This document shows positions 20,978-30,547 of a stretch of DNA of 64,000 nucleotides, in pieces (the stretch's first letter is position 1; each line of letters opens with the position of its first letter). The notes beneath the pieces were generated by a model, which was given only the letters and a program-made list of their open reading frames with translations, did no database searches and was not told the DNA's origin. This DNA is from Bacteroidota bacterium. GTDB lineage: Bacteria; Bacteroidota; Bacteroidia; UBA7662; JAYUJN01. Location: the NCBI GenBank assembly GCA_043765195.1, contig JAYUJN010000040.1, positions 22,734 to 86,733 of the forward strand, written 5' to 3'. The position numbers were made by a program, and so were the translations under genes.

Positions 20978-23137
20978 ATGAAACGAATTGTTGTAGAACG
21001 CATAAAAGGTTATTTGCACAAGTATTTTGAACTTACCGACCACATTCCGACCCACGACTGGCGGCAAAATGAGTGGCAAACGGAGGTAAATTTGGCGGAT
21101 TTTTTATGGAGGTTGGCGGAAACAGACCACAACGAAAAAATTGGGTTTATAGAGCAATATTTGACCACAACTGACTTTGAAGAACTGCTAAAAAACATAG
21201 GCGCACCCTGCATTGTTTTTGATAAAAACAACGACTATCAGCCCATCATTATAGCCCAAGAACGCAAAAGTAGCACGAGGAATAAAGTCATTTTTTTGAG
21301 CATTGACAAAGAAACTGGCGAGGCACAATACATTGATATTAAGGCATTTGGCGCTTTTAATTTGGCTACGGTAGCCGACCTTGCACTGAACTTTAACTAT
21401 ACCATAAAAAACCAAGAAACGACCAAAGATACCGATATTTTTACGGTTGCATCTTACAGCATTTTGCCGTATTTTGAGCAAGGAAACGATGCAAGTGCAA
21501 AGAAAAAAAATCCTTTTCAAAAACTGCTCGCACTTTTAGCCGCCGACAAAAGAGAGATTTGGTATGTGTATTTTTATGCCATTTTGTCGGGGCTTATCAG
21601 CGTACTTTTACCGCTTAGTATGCAGGCTATCGTAAATTATGTGTCTGGTGGCGAAATTTTGAACGTGATTATGGTGCTTATTATAGCCGTAATTTTGGGT
21701 ACTGTGATAGCTGGCGTGCTGCAAATAGTGCAAATGACGCTCGTAGAAGTGCTGCAAAGGCGTATTTTTGTAAAAATTGCGTTTGAATACGCCTACCGCA
21801 TACCCCGCATCAAAGAAAGTGCGCTGCACAATTATTTTACGCCCGAGCTGGTAAACCGTTTTTTTGATGTGCTAACTATACAAAAATCGCTGCCCAAGGT
21901 ACTCATAGACATTACCTCCAACACCTTACAAATTGTTTTTGGGTTGATATTGCTTTCGTTTTACCACCCATTTTTTGTCGGTTTGAGCTTTGTGCTTATC
22001 ATTATTTTGTTTTTAATTTTTAGGTTTATGGGACCCAAAGGCTTGCAAACCAGCCTTTTGGAGTCGGATTACAAATACAAACTGGTGCATTGGCTGCAAG
22101 AAGTAGCCAAGTCGGCGCACTCGTTTAAAATTGCGGGCTTTACCAATGCGCCGATACACAAAACCGATTTTTTGGTACGCAACTACCTAAACGCCCGCTC
22201 CAAGCATTTTCAGATTTTGCGCACGCAATACAGCGCACTTGTGGTTTTTAAGGTGCTTATCATCGCCAGTTTGCTCATTTTTGGTACGGTGCTGGTAACG
22301 GAGCGCACCATTTCGCTGGGTCAGTTTTTGGCAACGGAGGTGGTGGTGGTGCTGCTGCTGGGTGCGGTAGAAAAACTAATACTAAGCCTCGATGTAGTGT
22401 ACGACATACTTACTGCCTGCGAAAAAGTATCGAAACTAACGAATTTACCCTTAGAAAAACAGGGCGGATTGCAGTTTCCGAAGCAAAACACGAAGCAAGG
22501 CGTGGCACTAAAAACGACCAACCTGAGCCTAAAACTGCCGCAGCACAGCCATAAAATTTTGGAAAACATCAACTTTGAAATCAAAGAAAACGAAAAAATT
22601 TGGGTTCGGGGCGATGCCGAAAAATTAAAGGCATTTTCGCAGGTTTTGCAGGGTTTTTATGACTACGGAGGCAATATGCGCATAGATGGGCTGCCCTCGA
22701 GGGAGATTGGCTTGACGCATTGGCGGGATATACTGAGCGCAAACTACCACAAAAACGAGATTTTTGAGGGCAGCATAGAAGAAAATATCAGCATGGGCAA
22801 GAACCACATTACGTTGCAAGATGTGTTTTGGGCGGTAGAAAAAACAGGATTAGCCGACTGGGTTTATGCCCTACCCGACGGGCTGCGCACGCCGATTTTG
22901 GCGGGCGGAAAAGGCATAGCCGAGGCGCATTGTAGCCAAATAATGGTGGCGAGGTGCATTGCCGAGCGACCAAGAATGGTGATTTTTAACACTGAATTTA
23001 TACAAGATTTGCCGCCTGAAACACAAAAAAACATCATAAACTTGCTTTTTGATGCCGAAAACAAATGGTCGCTCTTGCTTTTTTGTAACGATGAGCGCAT
23101 AGGTAAAAATTGCGATAAAACGTTTTTAATAACATAA
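20978..23137 (+). CDS. ABC-exporter-like protein with an N-terminal C39-like domain and a degenerate nucleotide-binding domain
   Basis: N-terminal ~160 aa of unknown function, with no Cys/His protease motif. It has a six-helix ABC exporter transmembrane domain. The C-terminal NBD-like region has Walker A replaced by VRGDAEKLKAF, a signature LAGGKG and Walker B replaced by VIFNTEF. Confidence 0.6.
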   Translation: MKRIVVERIKGYLHKYFELTDHIPTHDWRQNEWQTEVNLADFLWRLAETDHNEKIGFIEQYLTTTDFEELLKNIGAPCIVFDKNNDYQPIIIAQERKSSTRNKVIFLSIDKETGEAQYIDIKAFGAFNLATVADLALNFNYTIKNQETTKDTDIFTVASYSILPYFEQGNDASAKKKNPFQKLLALLAADKREIWYVYFYAILSGLISVLLPLSMQAIVNYVSGGEILNVIMVLIIAVILGTVIAGVLQIVQMTLVEVLQRRIFVKIAFEYAYRIPRIKESALHNYFTPELVNRFFDVLTIQKSLPKVLIDITSNTLQIVFGLILLSFYHPFFVGLSFVLIIILFLIFRFMGPKGLQTSLLESDYKYKLVHWLQEVAKSAHSFKIAGFTNAPIHKTDFLVRNYLNARSKHFQILRTQYSALVVFKVLIIASLLIFGTVLVTERTISLGQFLATEVVVVLLLGAVEKLILSLDVVYDILTACEKVSKLTNLPLEKQGGLQFPKQNTKQGVALKTTNLSLKLPQHSHKILENINFEIKENEKIWVRGDAEKLKAFSQVLQGFYDYGGNMRIDGLPSREIGLTHWRDILSANYHKNEIFEGSIEENISMGKNHITLQDVFWAVEKTGLADWVYALPDGLRTPILAGGKGIAEAHCSQIMVARCIAERPRMVIFNTEFIQDLPPETQKNIINLLFDAENKWSLLLFCNDERIGKNCDKTFLIT

Positions 23138-25911: not shown

Positions 25912-25970
25912 TTGCACCAAAAGAATTTGGGCTTATAAAACTACGATAAATGAGTATTTTAAGCAGTTTT

Positions 25971-26070
25971 GAATTGTGTCTGCAGTGCGGACATAATTCG
26001 GAGGGTGAATGATAAAAACCAGTAGGATTTAAGTCAATTTTGAATTGTGCCCGCAGTGCGGACACAATTC
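25971..26070. repeat. pair of 29-bp imperfect palindromes (direct copies)
   Basis: gaattgtgtctgcagtgcggacataattc (25971-25999) and gaattgtgcccgcagtgcggacacaattc (26042-26070). Both are preceded by ttttgaattgtg. They lie in the 310-bp gap between tolC and the AT-rich island. Confidence 0.7.
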
Positions 26071-26221
26071 AGTTAGATGGACTGGTAGCCCAAACTACTA
26101 ACTTTTTTATTTTCAATAATTAAAAAATAAAACCTATAAAATTTGCAGATTGCAAAAAAATGGTTTAGATTTGTAGGGTAGTGTAAAATGTGCCTGTGTA
26201 CATGGATTAGCTATCATTATT

Positions 26222-27490
26222 ATGACCCACAAGCAGGAACTTTTCAAAAACTACCTAATCAAAAAAATTGGCTTCATTGAGGACACTTTTTTGAATAAGT
26301 ATATTCCGCTTCTTGAAGCGGCTAGCCCTAAACTTAAACTCTTAGGTAAACAGAAAAAAGTGTGGAGTGAAGATAGACAAAGATATTTGCCAGAAAAAGA
26401 AGACAGTCACAATACATACATTGAAAAAGAAAATTATTTCATACCTGAAAAATTCAATGTTATAGACCTCCTGAACATTGAACTTAACACTAAAAAAAGT
26501 AACGACTACACGTCAAAAGATTTAAATCTAAAATTTATTTCAGCGACTGACATATCAAACTTTACATACTGCCCAGTGAGTTTTGCAATCTCTAAAACTT
26601 TTGAATTGCCAAAACTCGAATCAGCAATTTTGGGAACATCACAACATGAAAAACAAATATTAATTAGGTGTTTGCGACCTTCTATAGCAAATGAATATAT
26701 TTCGTTCCATGATGCGATGATGACGGACTTCACTAGATTTGAAAATCCATTTTCACTCCATTCAGTTTTAAACGATGAAAATAAATTATTTTTTGACGAA
26801 CTAAGCGAATCATCAGTCATTTTCTATGGACACCACAATAACGAAACTAAAAACAAATATTTTAAAAGCACCAATGGAGGTTTTGTTGGGCAACCTGACT
26901 ATATTTTTAAAAACGATACCACAAACGATATTTTTGTGGTAGAAGAAAAATTCCAATTCGTGCCTAAAGACCCGTCAAATTTTTATTATAGCTCTTATTC
27001 TGAGGAGGAAGAAAAAAAAATTATAGAAAAAAGAACAAGGAAGTCTTTTTTCAACAATCATATTAATCAATTAAGCTCATATATTTACGGCATTGGAGAA
27101 TATGACATTAGGTATGGCTACCTGGTTTATTGGAAATATGAACTTGATAATAAAAATCCAAATATTGTCGGATGTGACGTTTTACGAATAGAAAAAACTG
27201 AAAACGGAAGGAAACAAATTAGAGATATATTTATCAGTCTTAAAAAATTGATAACAGATAAAAGTGGAGTTTTTGACATAGATAAACGAGTTCCAGCTAA
27301 GTGTGCAAATTGTGTTTCAAATCTTCTTTGCGGACATAAAACAGGAAGATTTACTGCTTTTAGCGTACCATATTCAAAGGACTACTTGAAAATATATTTT
27401 GCTCCATTTCCAGAGGGACTTAAAAAAGAAGTTCTGCCGACAGAATCAAACTCAACATCTGCACAAACACCAACTGACAGCCCACCATAA
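26222..27490 (+). CDS. Cas4/RecB-like PD-(D/E)xK nuclease with a predicted 4Fe-4S cluster (DUF83-type)
   Basis: Motif order matches Cas4/AddB nuclease domains: an N-proximal Cys (NFTYCPVSF), motif II D (GQPDYIF), motif III ExK (VVEEKF), a QhxxY motif (NQLSSYIYG) and C-terminal C-x2-C-x5-C (CANCVSNLLC). AT-rich codon usage unlike the flanking genes. Confidence 0.6.
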   Translation: MTHKQELFKNYLIKKIGFIEDTFLNKYIPLLEAASPKLKLLGKQKKVWSEDRQRYLPEKEDSHNTYIEKENYFIPEKFNVIDLLNIELNTKKSNDYTSKDLNLKFISATDISNFTYCPVSFAISKTFELPKLESAILGTSQHEKQILIRCLRPSIANEYISFHDAMMTDFTRFENPFSLHSVLNDENKLFFDELSESSVIFYGHHNNETKNKYFKSTNGGFVGQPDYIFKNDTTNDIFVVEEKFQFVPKDPSNFYYSSYSEEEEKKIIEKRTRKSFFNNHINQLSSYIYGIGEYDIRYGYLVYWKYELDNKNPNIVGCDVLRIEKTENGRKQIRDIFISLKKLITDKSGVFDIDKRVPAKCANCVSNLLCGHKTGRFTAFSVPYSKDYLKIYFAPFPEGLKKEVLPTESNSTSAQTPTDSPP

Positions 27491-27611: not shown

Positions 27612-28619
27612 ATGGATAAAAAACGACCAATAGACAAAAAAAGAGAATCTGGTGGATACACTGATATTGGAACTCTTGAAGACGGCGCCATTGTAGAAAT
27701 GAAAGAAATAGCTGGAAGATTTTTGATTATCAAAGAACGTTCAATATATGAAATGATTTTTGCGGACAAAATAGACCCAGCAAGAACGAATATAAATTTA
27801 CCCAATACAATTCACAAACTCATTATAGATAAGGGGACAGAGTCTGAATTAGTTGCAAGGACTTTATTAACAGCAAAGACAGTTTTTAAAAAAGAATACT
27901 TAAACGATAGAATAAACTGCAATTCCGTTTTGAGTCTATGTGTTGATTTGCTGTCAGAACTTTCACTATTAGAAAAAGAAATAAAAGAATACTTAGACGA
28001 AGAAAATAAAGTATCGCTTGAATACGAAAAAAGAAGAAATGAAAAAGTTTCTTTCCAACTTCCTGCTATCATAAATTTGGAATCAAGGTGTAAAACTATT
28101 TATCAAAAAACTGACCACATTGAACAAACCCTAATGGAGATAATAACTTATTTTTATCCTAACAAACAATTGACAAAACAATCCCATTTCCCAAAGTTTC
28201 ACGAAGTATTAAAGGTAAAATATGGAGAAAATGACGGTTTTTCAAAGTTTATTGGTAAGAAAGCTTGTTTTATGAGAGTTATTAGAGAATTAAGAAATGG
28301 ACTTGACCATAGGCTTGCAACATACAAAGTTACAGATTTTGAATTAAAACCTGACGGCGATATTCTTTCACCTACAATTGAACTTAATCACAAAGACGTG
28401 AAAGTTGAACGAATATCACTTAGTGAATTTCTAAGAATTACATCCAGTAATTTAATTGAAATTATTGAAGTAACTTTTGCGTTTCTTGCAGGACGTGCTG
28501 TAAAAACGACAGGAATGCCTTACCAACTCAGGGAAATTCCAAAAGAAAAAAGACGACACAAATTTGTAAGATTTTGTTTTTGGATGCCAATTGGTGTTGA
28601 AGGATATTATTGTCAATAA
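27612..28619 (+). CDS. hypothetical protein with a HEPN-like Rx4H motif
   Basis: No family recognised. Contains RELRNGLDHR, which fits the HEPN Rx4-6H RNase motif, in a predicted helical context. AT-rich. Confidence 0.3.
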   Translation: MDKKRPIDKKRESGGYTDIGTLEDGAIVEMKEIAGRFLIIKERSIYEMIFADKIDPARTNINLPNTIHKLIIDKGTESELVARTLLTAKTVFKKEYLNDRINCNSVLSLCVDLLSELSLLEKEIKEYLDEENKVSLEYEKRRNEKVSFQLPAIINLESRCKTIYQKTDHIEQTLMEIITYFYPNKQLTKQSHFPKFHEVLKVKYGENDGFSKFIGKKACFMRVIRELRNGLDHRLATYKVTDFELKPDGDILSPTIELNHKDVKVERISLSEFLRITSSNLIEIIEVTFAFLAGRAVKTTGMPYQLREIPKEKRRHKFVRFCFWMPIGVEGYYCQ

Positions 28620-28796: not shown

Positions 28797-29669
28797 ATGA
28801 GCAAGAAATTAATACGATTTGATTGGGCTATAAAACGACTTTTAAGAAACAAAGCTAATTTCGTTGTTTTAGAAGGCTTTTTGAGCGAACTGTTGTTTGA
28901 TAACATTAAAATTGAGCAAATTTTAGAAAGTGAAAGCAACCAAGAAACAGACGATGACAAATTTAATCGTGTGGATATTTTAACTCAAAATTCAAAGAAT
29001 GAACTCATCATTATTGAAATTCAAAGCAGTTACGAAATTGATTATTTCCACAGAATGGCTTACGGTGTTTCAAAAAGTATTACTGAAAACCATAAATTAG
29101 GCAGTAAATACAAAGAAATCAAAAAAGTAATTTCTGTAAACATCGTTTACTTTGACCTCGGACAGGGACAAGACTACATTTACAGGGGAAAAACAAACTT
29201 TATTGGACTTCACCAAAAAGACTTGTTGGCATTATCTGATAAGCAAAAAAGTACGTTTATAAAAGAAAACGTATCTGATATTTTTCCAGAATTTTATTTG
29301 TTGAAAGTTAATCAATTCAACGACGTTGCAAAAGACACTTTGGACGAGTGGATTTACTTTTTGAAAAACAGCGAAGTAAAAGATGATTTTAAAGCCAAAG
29401 GACTCAAAGAAGCAGGCGAAGTATTGGATATTATGCGACTTGAAAAACAAGACGTATATGGCTACAATCGTTATATGGATAGTTTGAGTTTGAAAGCCAG
29501 TGAAATTTTTACTTTACAAACTGAGGCAGAGTTTAAAGCAATGGATGCGAGGAGTATTGAAATTGCTGAAAATGGAATTATTGAGGGTTTTGACAACTTG
29601 ACAATTGGTAAAATGACAAAATTGTCAATAGAAAAAATTGAAGAATTACGAATTAAACTAAACAAATAA
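28797..29669 (+). CDS. Rpn/YhgA-family PD-(D/E)xK recombination-promoting nuclease (putative transposase)
   Basis: N-terminal FDWAIKRLL...FLSELL matches the TIGR01784-type FDYAFKxLF start. It has a D...E-I-Q/K core (RVDILTQNSKNELIIIEIQ) and a C-terminal repeated KLSIEKIEEL-like helix. Confidence 0.7.
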   Translation: MSKKLIRFDWAIKRLLRNKANFVVLEGFLSELLFDNIKIEQILESESNQETDDDKFNRVDILTQNSKNELIIIEIQSSYEIDYFHRMAYGVSKSITENHKLGSKYKEIKKVISVNIVYFDLGQGQDYIYRGKTNFIGLHQKDLLALSDKQKSTFIKENVSDIFPEFYLLKVNQFNDVAKDTLDEWIYFLKNSEVKDDFKAKGLKEAGEVLDIMRLEKQDVYGYNRYMDSLSLKASEIFTLQTEAEFKAMDARSIEIAENGIIEGFDNLTIGKMTKLSIEKIEELRIKLNK

Positions 29670-29701: not shown

Positions 29702-30310
29702 TCACTCGGCGCTTTTTTCGTTTAGCATTCCAGAGCCGCTGTTGAGGCTAAAATTCATTTGCCAGTTCACCGAAAGCGACATTTGTTTGAGCATTTCGTT
29801 TAGCTGCTGCTGGGCGGTTACAAACAAGTGGCTTTCCTTTACCTTTTGCGCTATTTCTGCCTTGGCTTGCTGCTGCATTTCGGTGAGCTGCTCGGGCGAA
29901 AAACGACTAAACGCATTGGCATCTAAGTCATAAAACTTTACGTTGGTGTCTATGGATAAAATTTCGGGCTCGGGCAAATAATCTATAATCAACTGGCGTG
30001 AACCCTCGGTGGCGGTGTAGCGAAACTTCGCAAAATCAAAGCCTACCAGAACCTTGGAATTGGTAAGCAATATGGCTTTTTTGTTGTTCGTAAATGCGCC
30101 CCACATCACTGGTTCTGTGGTTTTAAAATCATGGATTTCCGAAAAATGCCCCTCCGCCAGCACCACTTTAAACACCTTTTCGATGCGCTCGAGCAGCACA
30201 TTGCTCTCCTTTTTTAGGTTGTGCTGGTTGTTTTTATAATAATTATTATAAATCAATACCGCTATCATACCCAATAAAAGCCCCATAAATGCAATAATAA
30301 GATAACCCAT
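29702..30310 (-). CDS. membrane-anchored hypothetical protein (DUF4230-like)
   Basis: N-terminal TM helix (YLIIAFMGLLLGMIAVLI) followed by a soluble ~170-aa domain. The DUF4230 family assignment is by resemblance only. Confidence 0.35.
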   Translation of the reverse strand: MGYLIIAFMGLLLGMIAVLIYNNYYKNNQHNLKKESNVLLERIEKVFKVVLAEGHFSEIHDFKTTEPVMWGAFTNNKKAILLTNSKVLVGFDFAKFRYTATEGSRQLIIDYLPEPEILSIDTNVKFYDLDANAFSRFSPEQLTEMQQQAKAEIAQKVKESHLFVTAQQQLNEMLKQMSLSVNWQMNFSLNSGSGMLNEKSAE

Positions 30311-30392
30311 GCTTTTTTTTAAATGGTAGTTGCAATTTTTGTACCAAAACACAAAGTTAAAGTTATTTGGGCAAAATATGCTTTAAAAAATA

Positions 30393-30418
30393 AAACCCCG
30401 CTGTCGCAGCGGGGTTTT
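30393..30418 (-). terminator. rho-independent terminator (minus strand)
   Basis: Hairpin aaaaccccgctg-tcgc-agcggggtttt. On the minus strand it is followed by a T-run. It sits 3' of the anti-sigma-like gene, within the second copy of the conserved element (30384-30466). Confidence 0.6.
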
Positions 30419-30547
30419 CCATTAACCTAACCTTAAAACCTAACTGTACAAATAAAGTATGTACCGTATGCTTATTAGACGCTTAACAACGCCCACAAGT
30501 TGGGTAAAAAACAAAGTTTAACACCGAATGAGCGTTTTTTATTTTTC

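Follow-up and report, generated by a model that had tools for sequence, protein, structure and literature searches.

Is the 335-aa protein encoded in a low-GC block of a Bacteroidota bacterium a HEPN ribonuclease, and does it act alone or with the genes beside it? The locus in question lies in a stretch of 64,000 nucleotides (hereafter, the window; positions 22,734 to 86,733 of contig JAYUJN010000040.1, assembly GCA_043765195.1), where the ORF listing gives a complete ATG-to-stop open reading frame (ORF) at 27612-28619 on the + strand. The initial annotation, made from the letters alone, called its product an orphan of no recognizable family, pointed to an RELRNGLDHR segment in a helix near residue 230 as a possible Rx4H signature of HEPN RNases, and proposed the protein, should the motif be real, as the RNA-targeting effector or toxin of the island around it. 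Our analysis favors, with a probability of about 0.6, a solitary, cytoplasmic, metal-independent endoribonuclease of the HEPN type, from a previously unannotated family that would be carried as mobile cargo of biological conflicts. Considered part by part, homology of the family to HEPN is probable, RNase activity is rather likely, and a role in defense, in abortive infection or as a toxin is tentative, at slightly less than even odds.

The first question is whether the protein has relatives, and it has many, so that the description as an orphan had to be given up. We found 186 homologues at E<=1e-3, nearly all of 335 aa and named "hypothetical protein" or not named at all. A profile search against 1.84 billion cluster representatives returned 793 clusters (50% identity) at E<=1e-3 and 560 at E<=1e-10, and almost all of these matches were full-length (315-345 aa); among 270 family proteins collected, 250 have at least 300 aa, with a median length of 335 aa. 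The absence of a recognizable family was borne out, as the window protein stays below every threshold in Pfam, PADLOC, NCBIfam, PHROGs and the PDB sequences, with only noise in the last two. No model of a known PADLOC defense system fits (zero families at E<=1 for the window protein in PADLOC-DB v2.0.0), and the 91 members compared with the same database gave scattered matches at E of at least 5.7e-4, each in a single member, with a weak Cas13-ApeA match among the 91. These proteins constitute a large, wholly unannotated bacterial family with one fixed architecture.

The family is spread thinly over a wide range of hosts. A pattern scan of 185,579 GTDB species genomes located homologues at 40 loci, which span Flavobacteriia, Cytophagia, Chitinophagia, Saprospiria, Sphingobacteriia, Bacteroidales, Ignavibacteriaceae and Balneolaceae. 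A divergent branch extends to Rhizobium leguminosarum and is also found on a mobilizable Photobacterium damselae plasmid and on three IMG/VR contigs. Additionally, one metagenome-assembled genome of Flavobacterium sp. (SE1527_metabat2.bin.6) carries two paralogues, 64% and 50% identical to the window protein, on different contigs (L005 and L026).

The case for a HEPN active site begins with the motif R228-N229-x3-H233 (Table 1). In the window protein by itself an Rx4H is not beyond chance, since 37% of shuffles of this protein contain one (4.8% for R[NDH]x3H). Its significance comes from conservation in the family: R228 and H233 are present in 91/91 sequences, always with four residues between them. 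Among the 43 sequences with at least 52% identity, R228, N229, D232 and H233 do not vary, and the 91 sequences, with identities as low as 25%, leave just seven positions unchanged: R11, D52, D55, G75, R228, H233 and P254. The residue following R228 is N in 68 sequences, H in 12 and D in 9 (89/91), and position 232 is E in 74 and D in 13 of the 91. In catalytic HEPN domains the residue right after the arginine is typically polar, mostly N, D or H (Anantharaman et al. 2013, PMC3710099), and the family shows this form of the Rx4-6H signature, as R-x4-H throughout. A second invariant motif, ADxIDPxRTN, stands in the N-terminal part (D52 and D55 100%, P56 99%, R58 98%, N60 89%) and is retained in prophage-borne homologues.

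A second line of evidence comes from weak profile matches. PMC3710099 counts DUF4145, ApeA and Cthe_2314 among the HEPN families and regards KEN as a HEPN RNase. When the 91 members were scanned singly against Pfam, weak matches appeared to HEPN_Cthe2314 (E 0.0018), HEPN_Apea (0.0057) and DUF4145 (0.065), each in single members, among about 25 noise-level families. The weak matches were then located by concatenating residues 98-300 of all members and scanning the result. The less divergent half, concatenated in the same way, returned only the earlier noise families, which indicates that the method recovers known matches. The top matches of the helical-region scan were HEPN_Apea, DUF4145 (30.6 bits, a sum over concatenated, non-independent sequences) and Ribonuc_2-5A/KEN; MauJ also appeared, as a family of unconfirmed clan membership, and HEPN_Cthe2314 was not recovered in these scans of residues 98-300. 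The matches map to query residues 161-259, and the three verified HEPN ones to 161-243, that is, the proposed second and third core helices and the motif. The local profile similarity to DUF4145 and KEN falls at residues 215-243, exactly on helix 3 plus the R-N-x3-H motif, in alignments of only about 25-30 residues.

The same positions are seen in the individual members. P0205 matches HEPN_Apea at E 0.0057 over residues 151-230 (profile 34-100 of 136), and P0256 matches DUF4145 at E 0.065 over residues 214-244 (profile positions 52-80 of 88) and KEN at E 0.17 over residues 216-238 (profile positions 59-81 of 127). Models of the HEPN clan (CL0291) represent well under 1% of Pfam's 24,736 models. 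From these profile comparisons, it seems unlikely that three HEPN matches among ~26 weak ones, all on one helix, are a coincidence.

Predicted structure points the same way. The AlphaFold2 model of the full-length protein, built from a 43-sequence alignment, reached a predicted local distance difference test score (pLDDT) of 91.3 and a predicted template modeling score of 0.87. Residues 98-300 modeled alone gave an unchanged topology (pLDDT 93.6), so that the core can be taken as an autonomous domain. This core is helical, and in the model the final turn of its third helix contains R228; the helix ends at D232, and H233 is the first residue past it. In the published description of HEPN domains, the motif stands at the end of H3 and inserts occur between H2 and H3 (PMC3710099). 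With the proposed H1-H4 assignment, the predicted motif position is likewise the C-terminal end of H3, and the model would agree with that description point by point. HEPN helix 2 frequently, though not universally, has a conserved acidic residue near the motif (PMC3710099). The polar patch on the proposed H2 (Q165 77%, D168 D/E 69%, H169 81% in the 91 sequences) is a candidate for this position in the model.

Outside the canonical elements, the architecture is rich in beta structure. R11 and G75 of the N-terminal part are among the invariant positions, and we propose that this part serves as a sensor or substrate-binding module. P254 of the beta insertion is 100% conserved, E286 on the proposed H4 is kept in 96% of the 91 sequences, and the C-terminal segment has a conserved I309-P310 (P310 77%) and R314 (86%). 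Foldseek also gave short local matches (50-70 residues, probability 0.9-0.99, root-mean-square deviation 2-3 A, E 0.3-1) to small beta domains of phage tail/'stabilization' proteins and to the ubiquitin-E1 FCCH domain. We place these matches on the N-terminal module as a guess, and its predicted fold may be a common type of small beta-barrel.

Table 1. Positions of the features of the 335-aa gene, its coding neighbors and the flanking repeats in the window
Feature	Residues	Nucleotides	Strand	Remarks
Cas4-like PD-(D/E)XK protein		26222-27490	+	422 aa; upstream neighbor
N-terminal module	1-95	27612-27896	+	charged tail with R11; four beta strands (27-72); helix 79-91
ADKIDPARTN	51-60	27762-27791	+	second invariant motif; family consensus ADxIDPxRTN
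HEPN-like helical core	98-300	27903-28511	+	from AlphaFold2 models
Proposed H1	103-143
Proposed H2	156-181
QKTDHI	165-170	28104-28121	+	polar patch on proposed H2; family consensus QKADH
Insert helix	193-204
Proposed H3	209-232
RELRNGLDHR	225-234	28284-28313	+	putative catalytic Rx4H, R228-N229-x3-H233
R228 codon	228	28293-28295
H233 codon	233	28308-28310
Beta insertion	238-269	28323-28418	+	between H3 and H4; strands 238-241, 255-259, 264-269
Proposed H4	270-295	28419-28496	+
C-terminal beta segment	296-335	28497-28616	+	strands 305-308, 321-325, 332-334
Rpn/PDDEXK_2 protein		28797-29669	+	290 aa; downstream neighbor; PF12784 at 5.6e-23, TIGR01784
Direct repeat TTAAAAAATAAAACC, left copy		26120-26134		15 nt
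Direct repeat TTAAAAAATAAAACC, right copy		30383-30397		15 nt

Several results speak against assigning this core to HEPN. No HEPN model reaches its curated threshold in any of the members, the consensus sequences of alignments A1 and A2 match no Pfam model either at full length or over the helical region, and a profile search of PDB sequences from a deep alignment returned de novo helical designs and no HEPN protein. In the structural comparison, the full-length model had no match at E<=1e-3 in the PDB or BFVD (Foldseek), with HepT/HEPN-MNT toxins at E about 1. No Foldseek match fell below E=0.1, and the best value for the core alone was 0.16. HEPN proteins make up 9 of the top 50 core-only matches (the HepT toxins 7bxo, 7ae9, 8yuf, 8xeh and 8xdj, and 4nqf). 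The HepT matches among them have template modeling (TM) scores of 0.33-0.40 and deviations of 9-12 A, and they are interspersed with matches to unspecific helical bundles, among them gp41 mimetics, STAT coiled coils, SPX domains and de novo designs.

It is important to consider, consequently, that the core might not be a HEPN homologue at all. In that case the fold would be new and R-N-x3-H a functional site that arose by convergence or is unrelated, for instance, a ligand- or phosphate-binding site or that of another hydrolase in which ADxIDPxRTN takes part. This explanation, which we regard as unlikely, is favored by the lack of any significant fold, profile or consensus match listed above. 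It also gains from R11, D52, D55 and R58, which are as invariant as the motif and are not needed by canonical HEPN sites, so that the center may be more complex or different, and from the extensive beta elements that the model places around the helical bundle. It has more difficulty with the convergence of weak matches to different HEPN families on one helix, and with the N/H/D spectrum after the arginine and the helix-end position, both of which agree with the HEPN definition. Furthermore, diverged or split HEPN domains, such as those of ApeA and Csx1, are likewise hard to find by sequence or fold search.

If the protein is a HEPN RNase, the next question is whether it belongs to the host's own RNA metabolism or to mobile conflict systems, and here the genomic neighborhoods are informative. 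Clustering of all ORFs across the 40 genomes revealed no conserved neighbor, with one partial exception. In the flanks of 41 loci there was no recurrent small ORF (30-130 aa) that could be an antitoxin; a few small-ORF clusters overlap the gene's own conserved ends in other frames. The 500-bp flanks of the same 41 loci had no recurrent tandem repeat array in a Tandem Repeats Finder analysis, and the upstream gaps are mostly 100-500 bp. The partial exception is a 433-aa protein encoded 18-33 bp downstream of the homologue at three loci (L017:7026-8324, L015:7038-8342 and L018:3426-4604; L048:9026-10327 is the same site as L017). This protein has no Pfam match and bears its own LPYRNGILHGRD R-N-x3-H motif, and judging from that motif it may be a second HEPN-like protein.

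Genes of mobile elements and defense systems recur near the homologues. Within two genes of them there are four tyrosine integrases, Gabija GajA/GajB, an MmeI type IIG restriction-modification gene, AbiLi/AAA_21, MADS mad3/mad8 and Schlafen, and a Mut7-C RNase is also among the neighbors. In Aequorivita an integrase adjoins the homologue, in Dyadobacter frigoris the homologue follows Mrr_cat and several unknown genes, and on the Photobacterium damselae plasmid it stands beside qnrS2, an endonuclease, a recombinase and a PIN protein. In searches of plasmid and phage collections, the window protein had no match and the A2 consensus had a single plasmid match; a curated phage collection contained no family member.

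Prophage cargo was seen in two IMG/VR contigs (L053:1515-8431 and L052; UViG_2778261098_000005 and UViG_3300022693_003710), which carry a divergent homologue with 27% identity that keeps both motifs. Its start overlaps the stop of a gene for a ParB-domain DNA methyltransferase by 4 bp. Downstream come two ORFs (166 and 672 aa) that presumably encode terminase subunits, and after them a portal gene of the packaging module. The L053 portal matches solved portals at E about 1e-80.

RNA-repair genes accompany the family at one further locus. In JGI 3300012894, contig Ga0160427_10000001 (L050), 27 bp separate the homologue P0113 from the downstream gene for Pnkp (L050:8001-11761), a 910-aa protein that combines kinase, phosphatase and ligase domains. 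Hen1 (L050:1961-3457) and an RlaP-family gene (from L050:16653) are nearby. The bacterial Pnkp/Hen1 RNA-repair system mends RNA breaks of the ribotoxin type. This linkage, which speaks for an RNase but was found in 1/50 loci only, is taken as an anecdote.

The same survey contains what can be said for a horizontally mobile HEPN-fold RNase that serves host RNA processing, RNA turnover or the stress response and is not a conflict gene. Many homologues are located among housekeeping genes (PEPCK, ZnuA, Sua5, Nuo51, lipid A acyltransferase) with no defense gene nearby, and the homologue of Flavobacterium sp. J372 is a lone insertion between MatE and heme-biosynthesis genes; as a result, the association with defense islands is only moderate. 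Sequence and length are strongly conserved across orders (mean column identity 62% in alignment A1, ~335 aa), unusually tightly for a fast-evolving defense gene, and a shared role in RNA metabolism might explain the adjacency to Pnkp, Hen1 and RlaP equally well. On the contrary, a core processing enzyme is expected to be syntenic and vertically inherited, and this family has a very patchy spread and no conserved syntenic position, occurs as two paralogues in one genome, and is found beside integrases, on a plasmid, in prophages and, in the window, in a low-GC insertion. We therefore consider a host function of this kind improbable. What the neighborhoods describe is a solitary, horizontally mobile accessory gene, tied moderately and non-exclusively to mobile and defense loci.

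The remaining question is whether, in the window itself, the gene works with those around it. It is located in a block of 0.31-0.33 guanine-plus-cytosine (GC) content, at about 26.0-29.7 kb, between flanks of ~0.45 GC, and its two neighbors are co-oriented with it. The perfect direct repeat TTAAAAAATAAAACC has 2 copies in 64 kb (0.07 expected), which enclose four genes: the Cas4-like gene, the 335-aa gene, the Rpn gene and a DUF4230 gene. This pair is consistent with a ~4.3-kb insertion, of which the repeats may be the duplicated ends. There is no integrase, and no empty site was found when the flanking OEP gene was compared with metagenome contigs, where it had no relatives. Rfam and tRNA scans of the island revealed no tRNA or credible RNA family and no Rfam match reaching its gathering score. 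A scan for sigma-70 promoters and terminators gave background levels, with a sigma-70 model that is unsuited to Bacteroidota promoters.

The upstream neighbor matches PADLOC Cas4 at 3e-8 and Pfam Cas_Cas4 below threshold (0.075), with residues D226...E243-K244 and the cysteine set C117 / C361-x2-C364-x5-C370. It has no CRISPR context and is a solitary Cas4-like Fe-S nuclease whose N-terminal extension is long. Just upstream of the island, at 25953-26071, there are two copies of a ~47-nt element, 71 nt apart, each holding a 30-nt palindrome (TGAATTGTGyCyGCAGTGCGGACAyAATTC); the ~47-nt element resembles a repetitive extragenic palindromic element. In the intergenic region 30308-30502, beside the right-hand TTAAAAAATAAAACC, several unrelated Rfam models overlap weakly, all at E>0.1, which points to a stretch rich in hairpins and not to a known RNA.

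A three-gene system, in which the protein would be the RNA-targeting effector of the Cas4-like and Rpn/PDDEXK_2 nucleases, has in its favor the co-orientation of the genes in one low-GC block bracketed by the repeat and the joint presence of the 422-aa and 335-aa genes on every contig bearing this exact protein, and it is nonetheless very improbable, given that those contigs have an identical protein and the same gene order and so come from the same or nearly the same strain, that the gaps of 121 and 177 bp give no sign of tight translational coupling, and that tblastn found zero matches to the Cas4-like, Rpn and DUF4230 neighbors at the 40 homologous loci in other genomes, where no neighbor family is conserved. 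Nothing points to the genes of the block working together, and independent nuclease genes may simply have accumulated there. Of the effector proposed in the initial annotation, the HEPN-like part survived, strengthened by the invariance of the motif, its position on the helix and the weak HEPN matches, and the attribution to the island was dropped.

Within the reading as a solitary HEPN RNase, the closest comparisons are with nucleases that also act as single proteins. ApeA (PF18739) is a single-protein anti-phage tRNA anticodon nuclease. Its HEPN domain is diverged or split, with an H3-H4 insertion and catalytic residues on H3, and a ligand pocket lies between the N-terminal and HEPN domains (bioRxiv 10.64898/2026.01.26.701840). 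The window gene resembles it in being a single gene without a partner and in having a C-terminal HEPN-like core after an N-terminal region of no recognizable homology. ApeA is, however, much larger (in Ec2ApeA the HEPN domain alone spans 335-583), and helices dominate its N-terminal and Mid domains, whereas the present protein has 335 aa and beta-rich accessory elements; the oligomer, the ligand pocket and tRNA cleavage are features of ApeA. Membership in the ApeA family was rejected, as the best member (P0205) scored 17.5 bits against a cut-off of 24.4, the window protein did not match, and size and N-terminal architecture differ.

DARNA (PD-T7-3) is a single-protein HEPN tRNase activated by phage SSB-bound single-stranded DNA (SSB, single-stranded-DNA-binding protein; bioRxiv 10.64898/2026.02.22.705581). 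The likeness is one of concept: a HEPN RNase with R-x4-H and a noncatalytic sensor in one polypeptide, acting through abortive infection. In DARNA, by contrast, the HEPN domain is N-terminal (1-159), the sensor is all-helical and Pds5-like, and the protein has 456 aa; no sequence or PADLOC match connects it to the family. In Csx1, an ancillary RNase of CRISPR systems, a beta-hairpin comes right after the HEPN motif (PMC3710099). The beta insert of the window protein is at the same place, although this protein has no CARF domain, CRISPR context or detectable Csx1 similarity.

HepT/DUF86 (PDB 7bxo, 7ae8/7ae9, 8xdj, 8yuf) is the commonest natural family among the core Foldseek matches, and it carries Rx4H on helix 3 of a four-helix bundle; its matches to the core have E 0.3-1.5 and are not significant. 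HepT has ~130 aa and is always paired with an AMPylating MNT antitoxin, unlike the 335-aa protein, with its large inserts and no partner. A HEPN-MNT (HepT/MntA) toxin-antitoxin pair was rejected on the lack of any conserved neighbor or conserved small ORF at the 41 loci, and a type III toxin-antitoxin or AbiF-like RNA antitoxin on the lack of recurrent upstream repeats at these loci and of an Rfam match in the island.

By analogy with these nucleases, a working mechanism can be outlined for the solitary HEPN RNase. Two subunits would pair through their helical cores, and R228-N229 and H233 of each would form a composite active site. H233 would activate the 2'-OH of the RNA; R228, N229 and possibly D168/H169 on H2 and E286 on H4 would stabilize the transition state, and cleavage would leave 2',3'-cyclic-phosphate and 5'-OH ends. 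Because no antitoxin gene or RNA accompanies the gene, the activity is most likely restrained within the protein itself. The beta-rich module, to which the N-terminus, the C-terminus and the H3-H4 insert contribute, is a candidate regulator together with its ADxIDPxRTN loop, which is as invariant as the motif. Release of the activity might then be triggered, for example, by phage infection or a different stress, as in ApeA and DARNA. The gene would be mobile accessory cargo, of abortive-infection or toxin type, and not a component of the low-GC block.

A more far-reaching proposal is that the family, with its ~800 clusters, represents widespread and so far unrecognized compact single-protein immune RNases, in which a split HEPN core is joined in three dimensions to a composite beta-sheet sensor, and the sensor's ADxIDPxRTN loop would lie next to the R-N-x3-H site and gate it upon a phage-derived trigger. 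These proteins would then constitute a new defense system with a new form of sensor-to-HEPN coupling, distributed on chromosomal islands, plasmids and prophages of Bacteroidota and Proteobacteria. We hold this to be possible and, at present, doubtful.

The conceptual advance would be moderate, since this is a new family within a known superfamily and with a known functional logic, that of defense and toxin RNases; its interest lies mainly in a family that is large, completely dark, compact and partner-less. If the solitary HEPN RNase is the right reading, several hundred clusters of "hypothetical protein" would gain a testable function as metal-independent RNases, and a compact 335-aa protein would join the short list of single-protein HEPN defense nucleases, with ApeA and DARNA. 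Being small and partner-less and having a second invariant motif, it would be well suited as a model to study how a HEPN site is silenced and switched on. This would be relevant especially to Bacteroidota, whose defense repertoire is poorly charted.

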